A model generated the notes under the pieces. It was given only the letters and a program-made list of their open reading frames with translations, searched no databases and was not told the DNA's origin. The translations under genes were made by a program, and so were the position numbers. From a virus, in UHGV virus genome UHGV-1280366: a stretch of 30,300 nucleotides of DNA, one strand, 5' to 3'. This document shows positions 288 through 7,694 of this stretch, piece by piece (the first letter of the stretch is position 1; each line of letters opens with the position of its first letter).

Positions 288-1223
288 CCTGCGCTGGTTG
301 TCCCGATGGCAAAATTCTACGGTCAGTTATTCGATAATAATCCGGCGGCAGCGGCAACACTTGATAAAAGTACGATGGCATTTTACGGCAAGGTTTACGA
401 TTATTCCCGCGCTGGCGTGCCGGAGGATAAGGCTGTTGATATGGCTTACAGCCAGGTGTTCCAACAGGATGACCGAATGAAACAGATGCTTTCCACTGCC
501 ATGCGAGACAAAAAATATGTCGCGGCGAGGGCAACTGCTGCACAAAATAACGCCAGCAGTCTGACTTCCTTTGGTTCGTGGTCTCCGGATATTACCGATC
601 CAGGAAAATCAAATGCGGCCTATCAGCGAGATTACCAGACAATTTACGATGCTAACTTTGTACAGACAGGTGGCGATGCAGAACAGGCTGAGAAAATGAC
701 CAATGCCATGATCAGAACCACCTGGGGAGTTTCTACGGTTAATGGCAAAGCAGAGGTTATGAAGTATGCACCTGAGGCATTGTACGGAGTAAATAATGGT
801 GCTGGTAACTGGATACAGGGGCAGTGGGAGCAGGAAAAACGCGAGCTTAAATCAAAATCCTTTGGCGGTCCTCGCAGTGATACGGACTTAATACTTGTTT
901 CTGATGGCCTTACGGCAAGGGATAGGAGTTATGCTGTTATGGTTTTACAGCCTGACGCAAACGGAGCGATAGAACCGAGAAATTATATTGGAGAAAATGG
1001 TCTCCCTGTTCGTTTCAAGCCGGATCAACTGACATCTCCAATGTACAGGCAAACCATTCAGTTACAGCAACAGCGTGTTGATGAGGCTAGAGTGCGGAGA
1101 GAAGGCAATCCGCTGCCGCAGTTCAGCAATAAAGATGGATATACTCCTCCAGATCTGACCAAACCATTCGGTTATGGTTCAGCCAATTACCTTCCGAGCA
1201 ATATATACGCAGGGGGCAAATAA
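36..1223 (+). CDS. virion protein, putative DNA-ejection/internal protein (395 aa); start uncertain (ATG 36 or internal ATG 234)
   Basis: Long ORF with ATG start; stop overlaps the next start (TAATG at 1221-1225), indicating translational coupling within the structural operon upstream of the tailspike. Function inferred from position only. Confidence 0.55.
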   Translation: MEQHQEIQQGRNRFVSSMQNNFPLDPNDKNNQAAVDRYFAQDIAPSFSISDPQSINTLVTVTTKSGMIPTQVKTMLNSGATSRDPALVVPMAKFYGQLFDNNPAAAATLDKSTMAFYGKVYDYSRAGVPEDKAVDMAYSQVFQQDDRMKQMLSTAMRDKKYVAARATAAQNNASSLTSFGSWSPDITDPGKSNAAYQRDYQTIYDANFVQTGGDAEQAEKMTNAMIRTTWGVSTVNGKAEVMKYAPEALYGVNNGAGNWIQGQWEQEKRELKSKSFGGPRSDTDLILVSDGLTARDRSYAVMVLQPDANGAIEPRNYIGENGLPVRFKPDQLTSPMYRQTIQLQQQRVDEARVRREGNPLPQFSNKDGYTPPDLTKPFGYGSANYLPSNIYAGGK

Positions 1224-4200
1224 TGCCGATATATGAACAGAATCCTAAAGAGTTGCTTGGCGAGGATATTCAGCAAATAGCAGCACCTGATGACAGTAAT
1301 TTCTATATGGAAACACCTTCTTTGCTTTCTGCTGTGAACCCATTTACCAGTGATCAACGCGTTCAAAGGTCTAGACAAGCAGCATTTCGTATAGATAACA
1401 CGCTGGGTAGCTTTATTGCCAGTGCTCCTTTCAGTCAGTTTGACAGGGTTGAAGGATATAACCCATTTGATAACGATGCAGCAGATATTAAAGGCTATGA
1501 AGATTTTGCAGATTCGTTTATCAACTCCGGTTCGCATGAAGAAACAATGGCAATTAAACATCGAATCGATAAGCAAAGAACAGATAGAGAATATCTATCT
1601 GAAATGGGTGGTGCTGGTACTATTTCAAGCTTAGCAATGGGAATGATAGACCCGGTTAATGTGGCTGCAATGTTCATCCCTGTAGGGGCGGTAGCGCGTG
1701 GAGGAAGTATTGCTGAGACGGCAGGGCGTTTTGCCCTAGCGAATGCTGCTGGTGGGGGAGTATCAGAAGCCGCATTACAGGCCACTCAGGAAGCTCGCTC
1801 ACCGATGGAGAGCGTATCGAACGTTGTTGTTGATGCTCTCGTTGGTGGGATCCTTGGTGCTGGTGCACAGCTACTTGCTGGACCTAGCGCGCGCGAGGCA
1901 GTGGTTAACTCAGTAGGTAATCATTTGCGAGGTATGGATTCTCCTCAAAGCATTGGTGCAGCTCAGGTTTTCAATACCACACTCGATCAGGAACAGCTCG
2001 CTGGACTTGGACTTGCTAACAAAACGTTGAGTGTCACTCCTGCTGGCCGCTTGGCTCAATCACCATCTCTTGTCTCCCGTCAGATTAACCAGCAGCTTGC
2101 CGAAAATAACTATTTCTTCGCCAAAAATGATGAGGGGTTGGCTACGTTTACGGCAGTCGAGACTAAGATTAAGCAATACGACGCCATGCTTTATAAGCAG
2201 ATGGAAGCCACTCGTGATGCTTACCAGCAGTACAGCAAATCTGTTAGCGCCCGCGGCGTGAAGAGGATGAGCTTTATTGATTTCAATGAAGCTGTTGGCA
2301 TGGCTATGCGCCGTGGTGATCAGAGTGATATTCCTGAGGTTTCACAAGCAGCCGCCAGAATCCGCCCCATTTTCGAGACCACAAAAGCCCGTATGCAGGA
2401 ACTGGGGATCCTTCCTGAGGATATCGATGTCGTGACGGCGAAAAGTTATCTTCCCCGCATTTATAAGTTCGATAAGATACTTTCCGACCGCACTGAATTC
2501 AGAGGGCGAATTGCCAACTGGATACAAGGGATTAGTGCCAAAGGTGCTGACAAAGCAGGTCAGCGAATTGAAAGGATAAATTCATTGCTAAAAACTGCAG
2601 AGGAATCGGCACCGCGCGCTGATGCTCTCGCTAGTGAAATCGCTGAAGCGGAGAAATGGTCTGGTAAAAAAATTCTACTTATGGAAGAACTGGATAAACG
2701 AAATAAGCTTATATCTCAGGAGACTGACACACAGGCGCGTCTTACAAGAATAGAAAAAGAGTTGGCCGAGACTTCATCAGAAAAACTTCAGGCAAGAATG
2801 ATGAAAGAAAGCTCTGACCTTAAAACACGCCTTGATGATATAGCGCAGGCAAAGAGTGAGCTTCCTGTCTATCAGCGCCATATGGAGTTGCTGGATAATC
2901 CACGGAAATATCGTTCTGAGCTTCGCCGACTGCAAAAACGGGCAAATTCAACCACAAGGCTGAATGCAAGCCGCGAACGAGCACTGAAGCAGATGGAGCC
3001 TCTATCCCGAGAGGAAGCAGAGGACGCTGCTGACGAGATCGTGAATAAAATAATAGGCGCACCTTCCGGGCTTGTACCAGCCGATATTATCCCAGAGAGA
3101 CTCGTTGGTCGGGCTGGTTTCACTAAAAGCAGAACGCTGCTTATTCCTGATGAGCGTATAGAAGATTTTCTTGAATCAGATGTTAACTACATCATGGAAA
3201 GTTATCTCCGGCAGGTGGCACCAGAAATTGAGCTGACTGCGCAGTTTGGCCGTAAAGATATGGGGGAGCAAATCCGTCAGGTTAGTGAGGAATATACCCG
3301 GCTAATAAAAGAGGCTAAAACACCTAAACGACGTGCAGTTCTTGAGAAGCAACGGGAGGCTGATATTAGGGATATTACGGCTATGCGTGATCGACTGCTT
3401 GGTACTTACGGTGCACCTCAAGATCCACGCAGTTTCTTTGTTCGTGCCGGGCGAGTTGCTAGGAATATTAACTTCCTCCGTTTGCTTGGTGGAATGACTG
3501 TCTCCGCTGCAACTGATCTGATGCGACCGATGATGCAGCATGGCCTGAGAAAATCTCTCGGACCAATGGTAAGCATGCTTAAAAATATGGACTCAGTGAA
3601 AATTGCAACCAGGGATTTGCGAGAAATGGCCGTTGGGCTTGATTATGTCCTGTCTACGCGTACAAAGGCTATAGCGGATCTTACTGACCCCTATAGCCGG
3701 AGAAGCGCCGCTGAGCGAGGTCTGAACTGGATGACGCAGAAATTCGGTAACTGGACGCTGATGAATCAGTGGAACAGCGCACTTAAATCATGGTCCGGGA
3801 TGATAGTGCAGTCGAGGATACTTGACGCGGCTCGCCAAGTTTCTGCTGGTGGCACGCTCTCCAAAAGTGAAATGCGGAAGATGGCACAGGTCGGCATCAA
3901 TGAAGATGTTCTGCGCCGAATCGGGGAGCAATTCGGGAAGCACGGAGAGGATATGGACGGGCTGTTAACCGGGCATAGTCATCTGTGGGATGACCGTTTC
4001 GCTAGAGAGATTTTCCAGTCTGCAGTGCTGAAAGATGTAGACTCAGTGATTGTAACGCCTGGCGTAGGTGATACACCGCTGTTTTTTAGTAAAGAAGGCT
4101 GGAAGATGATCACGCAGTTCAAAACGTTTATCTTCGCACAGCATAACAGGGTGCTAGTATCTGGTATCCAGCAGGGCGATGCTGCATTCTATCTTGGTGC

Positions 4201-4612
4201 GCTTGGCACGATTGCGCTTGGCTCAATGGTCTATATGATGAAACAGAAGTTAAGCGGTCGCGATATCGACTACAGCTGGAATAACCTTGTGAAAGAGGGG
4301 ATCGACCGGGGCGGAATGCTTGGCTGGCTCTCTGAGCCGCTGAATACCGTTGAGAACATAAGCGGCGGTAGGTTTGGTCTTGGCGCGATGTTTGGTGCGC
4401 CTCCGGTATCAAGGTTTCAGAGTCGTAATGCTATTGGTGCTTTACTTGGTCCTACCTTTGATCTTGGCGGTGATGCCGCGACGGTTGCGAATGGTGTACT
4501 TAACGGAGAATTTGACAGCCAGCAAACCCACGCGGTCCGTAAAATGCTACCTTTTCAGAACCTGTGGGCGATATCACCGTTACTAAATAAAGTTGAAGAG
4601 CAGATGAAATAG
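1223..4612 (+). CDS. large virion protein (1129 aa), putative DNA-ejection/internal virion protein
   Basis: 3.4-kb uninterrupted ORF; Gly/Ala-rich hydrophobic segment near residues 130-230, charged coiled-coil-like central region, hydrophobic C-terminal part. Last large gene of the structural module before the accessory island and tailspike. Family not recognised. Confidence 0.75.
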   Translation: MPIYEQNPKELLGEDIQQIAAPDDSNFYMETPSLLSAVNPFTSDQRVQRSRQAAFRIDNTLGSFIASAPFSQFDRVEGYNPFDNDAADIKGYEDFADSFINSGSHEETMAIKHRIDKQRTDREYLSEMGGAGTISSLAMGMIDPVNVAAMFIPVGAVARGGSIAETAGRFALANAAGGGVSEAALQATQEARSPMESVSNVVVDALVGGILGAGAQLLAGPSAREAVVNSVGNHLRGMDSPQSIGAAQVFNTTLDQEQLAGLGLANKTLSVTPAGRLAQSPSLVSRQINQQLAENNYFFAKNDEGLATFTAVETKIKQYDAMLYKQMEATRDAYQQYSKSVSARGVKRMSFIDFNEAVGMAMRRGDQSDIPEVSQAAARIRPIFETTKARMQELGILPEDIDVVTAKSYLPRIYKFDKILSDRTEFRGRIANWIQGISAKGADKAGQRIERINSLLKTAEESAPRADALASEIAEAEKWSGKKILLMEELDKRNKLISQETDTQARLTRIEKELAETSSEKLQARMMKESSDLKTRLDDIAQAKSELPVYQRHMELLDNPRKYRSELRRLQKRANSTTRLNASRERALKQMEPLSREEAEDAADEIVNKIIGAPSGLVPADIIPERLVGRAGFTKSRTLLIPDERIEDFLESDVNYIMESYLRQVAPEIELTAQFGRKDMGEQIRQVSEEYTRLIKEAKTPKRRAVLEKQREADIRDITAMRDRLLGTYGAPQDPRSFFVRAGRVARNINFLRLLGGMTVSAATDLMRPMMQHGLRKSLGPMVSMLKNMDSVKIATRDLREMAVGLDYVLSTRTKAIADLTDPYSRRSAAERGLNWMTQKFGNWTLMNQWNSALKSWSGMIVQSRILDAARQVSAGGTLSKSEMRKMAQVGINEDVLRRIGEQFGKHGEDMDGLLTGHSHLWDDRFAREIFQSAVLKDVDSVIVTPGVGDTPLFFSKEGWKMITQFKTFIFAQHNRVLVSGIQQGDAAFYLGALGTIALGSMVYMMKQKLSGRDIDYSWNNLVKEGIDRGGMLGWLSEPLNTVENISGGRFGLGAMFGAPPVSRFQSRNAIGALLGPTFDLGGDAATVANGVLNGEFDSQQTHAVRKMLPFQNLWAISPLLNKVEEQMK

Positions 4613-5053
4613 CTATTCACAATTAGTGATGGCGTATGTATCAAATATATTGCCATCACTAAATACATACCTATACTCAATCTCTCCGCCAAGGTGAATA
4701 AATGCTTTCATTTGCCTGTTGGAGCAAATGCTCGATTTTGAATAATTTCGCATTACACTCTTTAATTTATTTTCTAAGGTTACATCACCATTATAAACTT
4801 TTGATAAATAGCTGTTGTTGTAATTAAGATGCGCTACAACTAAGAGTTTGTTTAGTATTGCATTTATTGAAACAATAGACATATTATCATTCAATTTTAT
4901 GGGAAGTGACTTTCCTGCTTCTGATGCAATTTTGTTTGCATGTGCACACATATCCTCATTTATTAAATTCTTAAAACATATGTCGTTTGCAAACGAAAAA
5001 ATTGGTAGGATAAACAAAACGGTAGCTGTAATAGCGTGCATCGGCTTAATCAT
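4613..5053 (-). CDS. small hypothetical protein with predicted N-terminal signal peptide (MHAITATVLFILPIFSFA); moron-like
   Basis: ORF in a visibly AT-rich stretch (about 4620-5050) unlike the flanking phage genes; hydrophobic N-terminus ending in A-x-A-like site. Alternative start at 5041. Diverges from the next gene with almost no spacer. Confidence 0.45.
   Translation of the reverse strand: MIKPMHAITATVLFILPIFSFANDICFKNLINEDMCAHANKIASEAGKSLPIKLNDNMSIVSINAILNKLLVVAHLNYNNSYLSKVYNGDVTLENKLKSVMRNYSKSSICSNRQMKAFIHLGGEIEYRYVFSDGNIFDTYAITNCE
4623..4662. repeat. 11-bp perfect inverted repeat (ttagtgatggc / gccatcactaa) with 18-nt spacer
   Basis: Seen directly, at the convergent junction of the 1129-aa gene and the minus-strand gene 4613-5053; no flanking T-tract. 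Confidence 0.6.
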
Positions 5054-5065
5054 TAGGTGACCTTT

Positions 5066-5515
5066 ATGTTCAAGAAGATGATCAACAGATTAATCGGTGG
5101 TAAGGAGGTTAGCAATAAAATTCAACCTCTTATCTTTAAGGATAACTTTTCAGCTTTTGAGTATGCGTGTAAGTATCTTGACACAAGCCTTTCAGCCAAT
5201 AAACCAATGCCAGCCATCATCATACCTGGTCCCAGTGGGGAACAGCCAGTTTTGCTGGATTCTGGAAGACAAAGGGCAATGCTGAAGGTGTGCTCAGCTG
5301 ATGGTGGATTTTTTGTTATTGCCGATTCATCTTACAGCAAAGGACCAAAGCTGAGGATTGGTGATCTTGTTGCTTGGTTGCCTGTGAGTTATGCCGAAGA
5401 ATTAACGGATAAAATAGAAGATCCTCGCTCCGCTATGGTTGGCTTTATATTGGGAACCATTCATCCTGAACTAACATCTACTGGCTGGAAGGGTAAAGAA
5501 AGATTTCGCAAGTAG
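5066..5515 (+). CDS. hypothetical protein (about 149 aa)
   Basis: ORF; track start 5057 is GTG, so ATG 5066 was chosen, preceded by AGGTGA 6 nt upstream; followed by an intrinsic terminator. Confidence 0.5.
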   Translation: MFKKMINRLIGGKEVSNKIQPLIFKDNFSAFEYACKYLDTSLSANKPMPAIIIPGPSGEQPVLLDSGRQRAMLKVCSADGGFFVIADSSYSKGPKLRIGDLVAWLPVSYAEELTDKIEDPRSAMVGFILGTIHPELTSTGWKGKERFRK

Positions 5516-5529
5516 CGTGACATGTCACA

Positions 5530-5553
5530 GGCCGCTTTCGCGGCCTTGTTTTT
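5530..5553 (+). terminator. rho-independent terminator (GGCCGC-tttc-GCGGCC then TTGTTTTT)
   Basis: Perfect 6-bp GC stem, 4-nt loop, T-rich tail immediately after the stop of 5066-5515. Confidence 0.6.
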
Positions 5554-5593
5554 AACGAATGCCACCGCCGCCCGGGTGGGAATCCGCAGACAC

Positions 5594-5614
5594 AAAAAAG
5601 CCCGCGCCGCGGGC
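5594..5614 (-). terminator. rho-independent terminator for minus-strand gene 5620-6252
   Basis: On the minus strand GCCCGCG-g-CGCGGGC followed by TTTTTT (A-run 5594-5599 on the + strand). Confidence 0.55.
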
Positions 5615-5619
5615 TTCTA

Positions 5620-6252
5620 TTAATGCAGTTTATCTTTGCTTATAACCAGTAGTCTGTGGGTATGCACATCTTTATCACTGCCCCAACAGAAATCAGCCCA
5701 CTGGCTATAGAAATCATCCCATGATGTCATGAAGCTAAGAGGTCTATCTTCTTCAGAGCCATCTGAAACGTATACATTATATCCCGGGGTGTTTATAGCC
5801 CAAGAAATCATTCTTTCCCAGAATCTTCTCCCATCGATTGTTTGTTGCTCATCAGATACAACGATCGCATATTGCTCTAGGAAGAACTGAAAAAAAATCT
5901 GAGGCAAACCATGAACAGCACGGTCATGAATAACATTAGGCGTACGCCATACCATGATCTGCGTACATGTTCTTTTGGCTTCGACGATATCTTCCCGAAA
6001 GATTAACTTAACCGCATACACCGTTTCTGGAGTATCGCTGGTAGTAATCATTCTGTAATGATCGCCATTACAAGATTTTACAAGGCGATAACCATAAGGT
6101 GTTGTGAATCCCGGAAGAACGAAATCAACCACACCTTTCGCTAAGTAGCTTTCGGTGTGACTAGTGTTCTTCTCAGACATGTTCAGTTTTCTATCGAAAT
6201 CTGCTTCTGGGATAATGTATGGCATCGCTTTTCTTGTTGTATTTGTTTTCAT
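5620..6252 (-). CDS. hypothetical protein (210 aa), accessory island
   Basis: ORF with ATG at 6252 and GGAGG 6 nt upstream on the minus strand; bracketed by a terminator and an upstream TTACC-N5-GGTAA palindrome. No family recognised. Confidence 0.6.
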   Translation of the reverse strand: MKTNTTRKAMPYIIPEADFDRKLNMSEKNTSHTESYLAKGVVDFVLPGFTTPYGYRLVKSCNGDHYRMITTSDTPETVYAVKLIFREDIVEAKRTCTQIMVWRTPNVIHDRAVHGLPQIFFQFFLEQYAIVVSDEQQTIDGRRFWERMISWAINTPGYNVYVSDGSEEDRPLSFMTSWDDFYSQWADFCWGSDKDVHTHRLLVISKDKLH

Positions 6253-6326: not shown

Positions 6327-6391
6327 TATTACGCGAATCTACATCACATCGCCAATGATTATTTTAAAGGCACATCCCTGTGCCGCCGCCG

Positions 6392-7102
6392 TCAGAAGAA
6401 CCCTGCCTTGTCGTTGATGTACTCCGCGTGCGTCTGGATATCACGCAGGCATTTGCTCACACCGACGATGTAGCAGAACATGGTGGTCAGCTCCGCCGCC
6501 GCGCCCGATACGTCGTGCCCGTCTTCCTGTAACTGGTTCAGCAGATTCATCAGCAGTGAGTTTTCCGTCAGGCCGAGAACACCAGACGGAGAATGAATCA
6601 GGCTGCGGTAGCCGGGCTTCAGTGGGGCGCTGTAGGTTTTGTTCTCTATCTTCATTGCCTGCATCACTGCTGATGCTGTGGCGTTGGCTACCTGGTCGGC
6701 AACCATCTTTATGCGTTCTTCCTGCGGGAGCGAGTTTTTAATGTAACTTCCTGTGCGGCGGATCTGAGGAAGAACCTCACCTGTAACCCATTTACGAAAG
6801 CGGTAGGGGATAGTGCCTGGTGTTACTGCATCGCGGCAGCGGAGGATCAGTGTGTAGAGGCCTGACTCGGAGATGATGTTGATCTCTTTTACTCGGCTGT
6901 CAAAAATTGCACGATGTTCATGCCCTATGTTGAACATAGACCTTTCATCATCATCCAGTTTTTCAAGTGATTGGGTGACGTTTTGGATACGCAGCGCACT
7001 ACAAACGTCTTGGGCTACAAACCATGGTTGGCCATCGATAATGATGGAACGGATAGGGTTAACAGATTCAAATTTGAAGATGGCAGTTTGAGCATTAGCC
7101 AT
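6392..7102 (-). CDS. Bro-N / KilA-N family antirepressor-like protein
   Basis: N-terminal region (FKFESVNPIRSIIIDGQPWFVAQDVCSALRI...) resembles Bro-N DNA-binding domains of phage antirepressors; start moved to MANAQ (ATG 7102) with GGAGATAA upstream. C-terminal domain is paralogous to the product of 7418-7675. Confidence 0.7.
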   Translation of the reverse strand: MANAQTAIFKFESVNPIRSIIIDGQPWFVAQDVCSALRIQNVTQSLEKLDDDERSMFNIGHEHRAIFDSRVKEINIISESGLYTLILRCRDAVTPGTIPYRFRKWVTGEVLPQIRRTGSYIKNSLPQEERIKMVADQVANATASAVMQAMKIENKTYSAPLKPGYRSLIHSPSGVLGLTENSLLMNLLNQLQEDGHDVSGAAAELTTMFCYIVGVSKCLRDIQTHAEYINDKAGFF

Positions 7103-7258
7103 GGTGGTTATCTCCACTTAGTGATTTTAATCACCACCGCAACGCCAATTACTGGTGGTGAACTGGACAAGGTTGGCGTACCGGCCTAAGTGGTACCGGC
7201 GTCCTTTCGGACCCCTGCCCAGCCCACCATAATTCGGATATAGCTGTGCTTAACGCAT

Positions 7259-7280
7259 AAAAAAACCACGTCTGGCGTGG
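7259..7280 (-). terminator. rho-independent terminator downstream of minus-strand gene 7418-7675
   Basis: CCACG-ccaga-CGTGG hairpin followed on the minus strand by seven T (A-run 7259-7265 on +). Confidence 0.55.
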
Positions 7281-7371
7281 TATGCGCCACTTAGTAACTC
7301 GGGACGCCAATCCCGGCACTGGATTTTGCCAGTGCCCGATTACTATGGCACAAGAGGAGTGCAATGTAAAT

Positions 7372-7417: not shown

Positions 7418-7675
7418 TTATCTGGTTTGTTTTCGTAATTGTTCGGCACAATAGTCGAGATGTGTTTGCAGATCCTGCATAGACATCTGTGAGCTGGTGA
7501 CGTAGTTAATCAGTGCAGTCAGTTCGGCAAGTGGGCCATCGACATTAAATCCATCCTTATCGAGATCCCGGAGTAATTTCATCAAGTGCGATCCCTCCAC
7601 CAGTGACCTGACGCCTCCCGGCGTGTGAATCCTTTCGGTAAATCCGTCTTCCAGTGGATAGTGATACTGCTGCAT
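7418..7675 (-). CDS. short antirepressor C-terminal-domain paralog (about 85 aa), candidate SOS-regulated antirepressor
   Basis: Product aligns with the C-terminal 65 residues of the 6392-7102 protein (shared IH.P.GV..L.E.S.LM.LL..L..DG..V.G..AELT...Y...D.QTH). ATG 7675 chosen for GGAGAAG about 8 nt upstream; alternative ATG 7690. Confidence 0.6.
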   Translation of the reverse strand: MQQYHYPLEDGFTERIHTPGGVRSLVEGSHLMKLLRDLDKDGFNVDGPLAELTALINYVTSSQMSMQDLQTHLDYCAEQLRKQTR

Positions 7676-7694
7676 CTTAATCTTCTCCATGCAA

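Follow-up and report, generated by a model that had tools for sequence, protein, structure and literature searches.

The locus described here stands close to several known systems. In the temperate podophage P22, sieA lies between genes 16 and 9, and its product SieA blocks the conduit formed by the ejection proteins, with escape mutations in gp16 and gp20 (PMC10883804). In phages P1 and P7, the immI region is made up of the c4 antisense RNA together with ant. With regard to protein structure, AspS (also GspS-beta or YghG), a pilotin for type II secretion (the T2SS), binds the secretin's S-domain, and the disulfide Cys74-Cys111 of V. cholerae AspS is also present in PA3611, which is periplasmic without a lipoprotein signal and carries an extra helix after strand beta3 (PMC3542185). 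Here we analyse positions 4613-6252 of the virus genome UHGV-1280366, a stretch of 30,300 nucleotides which as a whole is called the window below. The segment holds three genes, g1, g2 and g3, and a first-pass annotation had taken them for a single accessory island between the ejection-protein genes and the tailspike, at the place of the P22 immI/sieA region.

On the whole, our analysis shows that the outline of a variable accessory region of the immI/sieA kind is right. We regard it as nearly certain that g1, g2 and g3 are real accessory genes in a hotspot with two slots. The wider reading, in which the segment is accessory cargo in two adjacent and independently exchangeable slots, running from the last ejection gene to an antirepressor under C4 RNA control and serving the functions proposed below, appears to us evenly balanced between right and wrong. 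The most likely role of the cargo is in phage-versus-phage conflict, and the functions given below for g1, g2 and g3 are all ones that we infer. The segment and its borders are composed as follows.

1223-4612, plus strand: EjB, the last internal-virion/ejection protein gene, 1129 amino acids (aa), phrog_342 'internal virion protein'; left border of slot A
4613-5053, minus strand: g1, 146 aa, phrog_8772 (unknown function), GC 0.32; slot A
5066-5515, plus strand: g2, 149 aa, phrog_9944 (unknown function), last open reading frame (ORF) before the late-operon terminator, GC 0.42; slot A
5514-5574, plus strand: conserved junction with the late-operon terminator hairpin 5529-5546, from the terminator scan and the comparison with phiV10
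5596-5618, minus strand: strong intrinsic terminator of g3 (10-bp stem, 6 GC, T-run), from the terminator scan
5620-6252, minus strand: g3, 210 aa, phrog_1349 (unknown function), GC 0.41; slot B
6392-7117, minus strand: BRO-N antirepressor gene, PF02498 at E 3.6e-19 and phrog_130 'anti-repressor Ant'; right border of slot B

The single island had to give way to two slots, A and B, which are exchanged independently and are joined at the conserved terminator. A count over 5426 complete E. coli genomes gives 14 with g1-g2, always as a whole block at 98.9% identity or more, 93 with g3 and none with the two together, which rules out a three-gene island. Matches with g1-g2 run as far as 5590-5616, those with g3 set in at 5507-5516, and the piece common to both is the terminator segment 5514-5574. 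Prophages that differ in the cargo on either side of it have this segment of about 60 bp in common; the phiV10 copy has 97% identity, and its hairpin, behind the last virion genes, bears the annotation 'terminator'. A public assembly collection has the exact g2 protein in 2943 of its indexed blocks; ten distinct neighbourhoods of it all read EjB (1129 aa)-g1-g2, and in the same ten at least eight gene sets, of which none is g3, occupy the stretch from g2 to the antirepressor, which makes g3 one of at least nine alternative cargo sets for slot B. In the IHE3034 prophage, a near-identical EjB of the 1129-aa type (EjB1129) is followed by a 283-aa gene instead of g1-g2, and then by g3.

The expectation that cargo would vary in the interval from the ejection-protein genes to the tailspike is borne out, as the occupants differ among related E. 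coli prophages. The alternatives include a YafO toxin pair, a DUF4760 protein, unknown proteins of 272/287 aa and 162/167 aa, and tiny membrane proteins, one of 53 aa, and in phiV10 the place is nearly empty, with ORFs of 47 and 30 aa only. Between the g2 terminator and the antirepressor, loci L054-L064 carry cargo of 283, 287+69, 272, 162/167, 146 and 110 aa besides others, almost all of it unannotated. None of the alternative cargo proteins has a match in PADLOC, and Pfam gives only DUF4760 above threshold; the 162/167-aa protein has a sub-threshold match to Nuc_deoxyri_tr3 (nucleoside deoxyribosyltransferase-like). The position also corresponds to that of sieA in P22, as first supposed. Horizontal acquisition, which had been proposed as well, does not fit g1 as a recent event, since its homologues down to 29% identity keep the same position by the same type of ejection gene, and slot A is stable within its lineage.

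All three ORFs are found as first described, with g3, for which no strand had been given, lying on the minus strand. The start codons of g1 and g2 are divergent and only 12 bp apart, in line with the tight pair that had been noticed. For g2 an alternative GTG start at 5057 would give 152 aa; the ATG at 5066 is preceded by AGGTGA at 5 nt, and the PHROG profile begins there. The start of g3 has GGAGG 6 nt upstream. Compared with homologues, the proportions of nonsynonymous (pN) and synonymous (pS) differences are 0.118/0.392 for g1, 0.074/0.635 for g2 and 0.105/0.810 for g3, with dN/dS of 0.23 for g1 and 0.055 for g2; because pN is far below pS, the three are real genes under purifying selection, and a reading of them as spurious ORFs is ruled out. 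The atypical base composition is likewise real, as the GC contents listed above compare with 0.48 in the ejection gene, 0.51 in the antirepressor and 0.465 in the window. A terminator of its own had been ascribed to each gene, and this is correct for g2 (5529-5546, plus) and g3 (5618-5596, minus) but not for g1, whose stop codon at 4613-4615 directly abuts that of EjB at 4610-4612.

Searches by sequence return no above-threshold match for g1, g2 or g3 in Pfam, NCBIfam, PADLOC or PDB sequences, and profile searches against PDB sequences give noise only for all three. The earlier statement that none resembles a recognisable family therefore stands at the level of sequence families, and fails at the level of folds, where g1 is predicted to be pilotin-like and g3 GNAT-like. 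Defence or anti-defence genes had been named as cargo known from this position, and a comparison with PADLOC-DB v2 gives no match for g1, g2 or g3. A weak match of g1 to Ntox35 (E 0.056, below cut-off) was dismissed. In tblastn against 50,697 phage records g1 has no match, g2 a single remote one, from an Acinetobacter phage, and g3 four, three of them full-length. The Rfam scan finds no RNA family within 4613-6252, and a literature search by accession or PHROG number returned nothing on g1, g2 or g3.

It is of most interest to consider g1. Its N-terminal hydrophobic stretch ends in a signal-peptidase-I type site (SFA before ND), which agrees with the signal peptide first noticed. The family is small, with 9 clusters in a word-indexed search, all in Enterobacterales prophages. 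Every homologue has a signal peptide of the AxA type, no lipobox, and four cysteines at fixed spacing (C-x9-C, C-x34/35-C), the last of which adjoins the C-terminus; Cys110 and Cys145, at a spacing of 35, are invariant. The lipobox pattern [LVI][ASTVI][GAS]C is absent from the first 40 residues in 15 of 15 homologues, and g1 has no hydrophobic 19-mer above 1.6 outside the signal peptide. Thus g1 is predicted to be exported by a cleavable signal peptide and to stay soluble in the periplasm. An AlphaFold2 model from a 9-sequence alignment reaches a predicted local distance difference test (pLDDT) of about 90 over residues 30-146, and in structure comparison it matches the alpha/beta fold of AspS and PA3611, with an extra helix after strand 3. 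The E. coli pilotin YghG and g1 share 'LPIK' after helix 1, and the Cys...Cys spacing is 37 in YghG and AspS against 35 in g1. Without a lipobox, g1 cannot be a pilotin targeted by the Lol pathway; it has the fold and fails lipidation, the defining feature of pilotins, and resembles the soluble PA3611. That g1 is a periplasmic protein with the AspS/PA3611 fold is in our view very probable. At the g1 position of locus L026 (4547-4996, minus) there is a 147-aa ORF with a homologous signal peptide and an unrelated mature part, which has two cysteines and ends in ...SDCD; its sequence suggests domain replacement behind a conserved export signal.

The neighbourhood of g1 is equally constant. In every recovered locus (20+ loci), its homologues, with identities of 29-100%, are convergent to and abut a gene of the EjB1129 type, the sources being E. 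coli, Klebsiella-type clusters, Providencia, Cedecea and five divergent IMG/VR contigs. The divergence of g1 outpaces that of EjB, with 29% against 73% identity in L040 and 78% against 92% in L035. In one metagenome-derived viral contig (L036:4980-5849, plus; IMGVR_UViG_2619619210_000012), the reading frame of the g1 homologue passes without a break into a diverged copy of the first ~100 residues of EjB and then into a transmembrane helix; the copied part has 36% identity to the EjB of its own contig (102-column alignment, E 5e-17) and 48% identity over 54 residues to the EjB of the window. The connection with g2 is looser. Cedecea keeps the tight divergent arrangement of g1 and g2 at 30% and 57% identity, and yet g1 occurs without g2 in Providencia and in L036-L040, and g2 without g1 in L027, so that an obligate two-gene system is ruled out.

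A periplasmic fold that captures peptides, the permanent adjacency to an ejection gene and the one fusion to a mimic of the EjB N-terminus are together best explained by g1 being an exclusion factor. The AspS/PA3611 fold would act here as a small alpha/beta module capturing a short peptide segment of a partner protein. When a related phage infects a lysogen and releases its ejection proteins into the periplasm, g1 would bind a segment of them, with the N-terminal region of the EjB-type protein as the likeliest target, and the binding would stop the assembly of the trans-envelope DNA conduit. With P22 SieA as a precedent, we propose tentatively that g1 acts on ejection proteins in exclusion, a proposal that falls clearly short of probable. 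In the literature we found no paper linking pilotins with superinfection exclusion.

A number of observations weigh against the functions proposed for slot A, and some bear on the whole segment. The link of g1 to ejection proteins consists of its position and of one fused ORF in one metagenome-derived viral contig, and a sequencing error or frameshift could have made this ORF out of two genes. EjB1129 is also found without g1, in IHE3034, which marks g1 as accessory, and for the same reason the adjacency of g1 and EjB may be plain inheritance. With the 9-sequence alignment only two of five AlphaFold2 models of g1 are confident (79, 72, 62, 59, 59). The g1 profile shows no significant similarity to E. 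coli YghG in hhalign (probability 2%) and finds nothing among PDB sequences, so the likeness to AspS and PA3611 is structural only. For g2, the link to conflict is guilt by association in a handful of contexts, and 73 of its relatives have no match in PADLOC-DB v2. Finally, promoter-like sites are not enriched (5 found against 7.6 expected from shuffled sequence), and the promoter candidates of g1, g2 and g3 are all weak, with 8/12 consensus matches only.

Among other explanations for g1, the one that survives best takes it for a decoy pilotin, a non-lipidated look-alike of AspS that binds the S-domain of a host secretin, either GspD-beta of the E. coli T2SS or another. It would alter the targeting or stability of the secretin and thereby secretion, virulence or sensitivity to secretin-dependent phages, and the outcome would be lysogenic conversion, not exclusion. 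This explanation draws on the only known activity of the AspS/PA3611 fold; E. coli encodes the cognate pilotin YghG, and the soluble relative PA3611 was proposed by its authors to bind secretins in the periplasm (PMC3542185). It leaves unexplained, however, why g1 homologues in several genera occur only beside ejection genes of the EjB type; moreover, the homologue in L036 is fused to a copy of the EjB N-terminus and to nothing secretin-like, and no similarity between g1 and AspS exists at the sequence level. We consider a decoy pilotin rather improbable, and exclusion through the ejection proteins remains the reading that we prefer for g1.

Turning to g2, its close family has 13 clusters, and the close alignment finds no relative in one-genome-per-species contigs. 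A profile search over 1.84 billion representatives extends the family to 308 clusters at E<=1e-3, of which 171 are at E<=1e-10. The domain of about 130 residues occurs alone, duplicated, behind one to five N-terminal transmembrane helices, or with zinc ribbons, and it is named by none of the libraries searched (Pfam, NCBIfam, PADLOC, PDB). Two family members are fused to a Zeta_toxin/AAA_33 kinase. A homologue with 39% identity lies 61 bp upstream of an HEPN_AbiU2 gene in three samples (L049/L050:1499-2665 among them). In the Acinetobacter phage MD-2021a (L041:4195-5387), the gene for a CI-like repressor is followed directly, on its own strand, by a homologue with 29% identity; the rexAB-like genes expressed in the lysogen have this position in lambda. 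In the window, g2 is on the strand of the virion genes and upstream of the conserved late terminator, and in L027 an ejection gene is followed by a small membrane ORF and then by g2, without a terminator between them. Given this strand and the uninterrupted arrangement in L027, g2 may be read through late in infection; it appears to lie inside the late transcription unit, and its product is predicted to be cytoplasmic. Judged by the company it keeps, g2 is probably a regulatory or neutralising module of a conflict system of the abortive-infection type, and a part in conflict as such we rate as plausible, if somewhat less than balanced. The boldest form of our reading makes two separate claims, that g1 represents a new class of superinfection exclusion, in which a soluble protein of pilotin fold captures the N-terminus of an ejection protein in the way that pilotins capture secretin S-domains, and that the g2 domain with its ~300 clusters is an unrecognised regulatory module of abortive infection; in this form we think it unlikely.

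The occupant of slot B is of a different nature. The g3 family comprises 63 clusters, all in Enterobacterales, with lengths of 199-237 residues and identities of 37-99%, and it has an invariant cluster (D134, T138, G141, R143, F144, W145) at a strand-to-helix junction. A fold search in BFVD gives uncharacterised phage proteins of ~190 aa (E 1e-9, template-modelling score about 0.65-0.7) and then proteins labelled NAT_SF (E 3e-4). Two independent fold libraries support a GNAT-like fold; the core alpha/beta fold is similar to that of the GNAT superfamily, with NatD, Hat1, AAC(2')-Ia, AtaT, TacT and viral 'NAT_SF' proteins among the matches. GNAT motif A, Q/R-x-x-G-x-G/A, which forms the pyrophosphate-binding loop, is absent in 40 of 41 members of the g3 family, and no acetyltransferase model of Pfam or NCBIfam matches g3. 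Since both the coenzyme A (CoA) motif and an acetyltransferase match are missing, we call g3 GNAT-like only. On the strength of these matches, the GNAT-like fold is likely, although not firmly so, and catalytic activity is doubtful. We suppose that g3 probably binds acyl-CoA and would modify, or merely bind, a cytoplasmic target. The gene neaT (PMC3573123), of a P2-like prophage, was tried as a relative of g3 and rejected, as it encodes a membrane acyltransferase of PF01757.

Moreover, g3 is a wandering gene. Besides the podophage of the window, where it stands behind the antirepressor, it is present in Serratia siphophages with Ant/Arc as neighbour, in the interval from the tail chaperone gene to the tape-measure gene; in P1-like elements between a sit-like gene and baseplate genes; in the lambdoid phage LLS after the lysis cassette; and in Xenorhabdus bovienii (L045/L046:5001-5639), with 59% identity, alone between ppc and metF and with no phage genes within 5 kb. 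This persistence outside any phage indicates that the benefit is probably to the cell, and not only to the phage. From its arrangement, g3 looks to be a self-contained moron with a cytoplasmic product.

The contexts of g2 and g3 could also be read as anti-defence, g3 being, like the GNAT anti-CRISPR AcrVA5, an acetyltransferase whose action inactivates an immune protein of the host, and g2 a free-standing toxin-neutralising domain that disarms an abortive-infection or toxin-antitoxin system during infection. The GNAT-like fold of g3 and, for g2, the domains fused or adjacent to effectors of toxin type and the place within the late transcription unit would all agree with this. However, g3 stands alone between housekeeping genes in Xenorhabdus, where an anti-defence gene has no user; it has no CoA-binding motif; and it faces away from the late genes with a terminator of its own, which is typical of host-directed morons. 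Moreover, the g2 homologue behind the CI repressor gene occupies a position of lysogen expression. An anti-defence role thus seems to us to have a small chance. Least likely, with a slimmer chance still, is a reading of g1 and g2 as helpers, and not cargo, that are specific to the lineage of the EjB1129 ejection module and assist it (for example as a chaperone, or as an auxiliary in infection or lysis), since the strict adjacency to EjB that g1 shows at identities from 29 to 100%, the orientation of g2 with the virion genes upstream of the late terminator and the invariance of the pair in E. coli neighbourhoods are set against the IHE3034 prophage, which has a near-identical EjB1129 and neither gene, against the occurrence of each gene without the other, against the export of g1 when virion assembly is cytoplasmic, against its antisense orientation to the late operon and its AT-richness, and against L026, where an unrelated mature domain stands behind the same signal peptide.

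The surroundings of the two slots agree with a temperate podophage. The window is most of the genome of such a phage, of the phiV10/epsilon15 (Uetakevirus-like) kind and from E. coli, and at the DNA level it comes closest to E. coli prophages and to the phages phiV10, TL-2011b, ZX5, HEMP4 and EC.W1-9. At the left end stand genes for large internal-virion (ejection) proteins (matching phrog_1044, and phrog_342 at E 5e-235), and after these the order is the g1-g2-g3 region, the BRO-N antirepressor, a 90-aa gene, the tailspike and the integrase. The first ORF (36-1223) aligns to positions 515-900 of phrog_1044, and its homologues have 915 aa, so that it is the C-terminal part of a longer ejection protein and the window begins inside a gene. 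In E. coli prophages the counterparts of EjB are labelled 'DUF919 family protein' and are preceded by a core protein of the 'T7 gp14 family'. The following features lie to the right of slot B.

6369-6384, minus strand: hairpin GGCACA-GGGA-TGTGCC then TTTAAAAT, read from the sequence; directly past the antirepressor stop codon
7151-7234, minus strand: C4 antisense RNA, Rfam, above gathering score
7259-7335, minus strand: isrK, Rfam, above gathering score
7296-7348, minus strand: a1/b1 targets of C4, Rfam, just below gathering score
7872-9980, plus strand: tailspike, 702 aa, N-terminal domain of phrog_1640/1171; far border of the region

The hairpin may separate the ant transcript from g3, and behind it there is only a weak promoter-like site (6355-6326) with an 8/12 match, not above chance. 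The analogy with immI, drawn from the position alone at first, proves apt, because the C4 RNA, isrK and the a1/b1 targets are found just upstream of the BRO-N antirepressor gene; within 7151-7348 the Rfam scores are 66 bits for RF01695 and 67 bits for RF01394, above gathering, and 44.3 bits against a gathering score of 46.7 for RF03163. As predicted from sequence, the antirepressor of an epsilon15-like podophage would thus be under antisense control of the P1/P7 immI type. The 90-aa protein (7418-7690, minus) and the BRO-N antirepressor are homologous over the C-terminal third of the latter; both match phrog_450 and phrog_15539, and phmmer pairs each with the other. In the tailspike the N-terminal 165 residues are conserved and the beta-helix C-terminal part is variable, with a match to Beta_helix below threshold (E 5.8e-05, 23.2 bits against a cut-off of 25.9 bits); the G+C content at third codon positions (GC3) is very low, at 0.29, which is consistent with a separately exchanged receptor-binding module.

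Prophage cargo hotspots are the usual source of new immunity and exclusion functions, and the one described here is almost wholly unannotated in a prophage family that is common in pathogenic E. coli. The g2 family is large and unnamed, and is repeatedly tied to toxin-type effectors, while the presence of g3 in four phage architectures and in chromosomes suggests a portable single-gene function. If the proposal for g1 is true, phages would have turned a protein of pilotin fold into a new means of barring DNA entry in the periplasm, soluble proteins like PA3611/DUF4146 would gain their first mechanistic role, and g1 would become a handle on the assembly of epsilon15-like ejection proteins, which is poorly understood.

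Compared with the known systems, each part of the region shows both likeness and difference. With regard to P1 and P7, C4 RNA and a1/b1 targets lie upstream of an antirepressor here too; this likeness concerns the context only, as g1, g2 and g3 are outside the known immI circuit and the antirepressor here is of the BRO-N type. Like phage morons, g3 stands as one gene that ends in a terminator of its own; it is set against the neighbouring virion genes, has a GC content below its surroundings, is present or absent among otherwise near-identical prophages and is common to unrelated phage types. Slot A differs from freely mobile morons, in that g1-g2 is stably tied to one lineage of ejection genes and g1 has no terminator of its own. 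AspS and PA3611 (DUF4146; PDB 4FTF, 3NPD, 5ZDH; PMC3542185) have no profile-level similarity to g1, which adds an N-terminal Cys-x9-Cys pair, and AspS belongs to a T2SS setting, whereas g1 is phage-borne beside ejection genes. SieA of P22 spans the inner membrane several times and carries FxRYPxEAxxFNK on the cytoplasmic side, a motif absent from g1, g2 and g3, whereas g1 is predicted to be soluble and periplasmic with a different fold; the outcome of SieA is resembled in our proposal only, through an unrelated soluble agent known here from sequence and model. Both are nevertheless prophage genes of temperate podophages that stand right behind the ejection-protein genes, ahead of the tailspike, and just as the types of SieA are highly divergent (<30% identity; PMC10883804), so are the homologues of g1.

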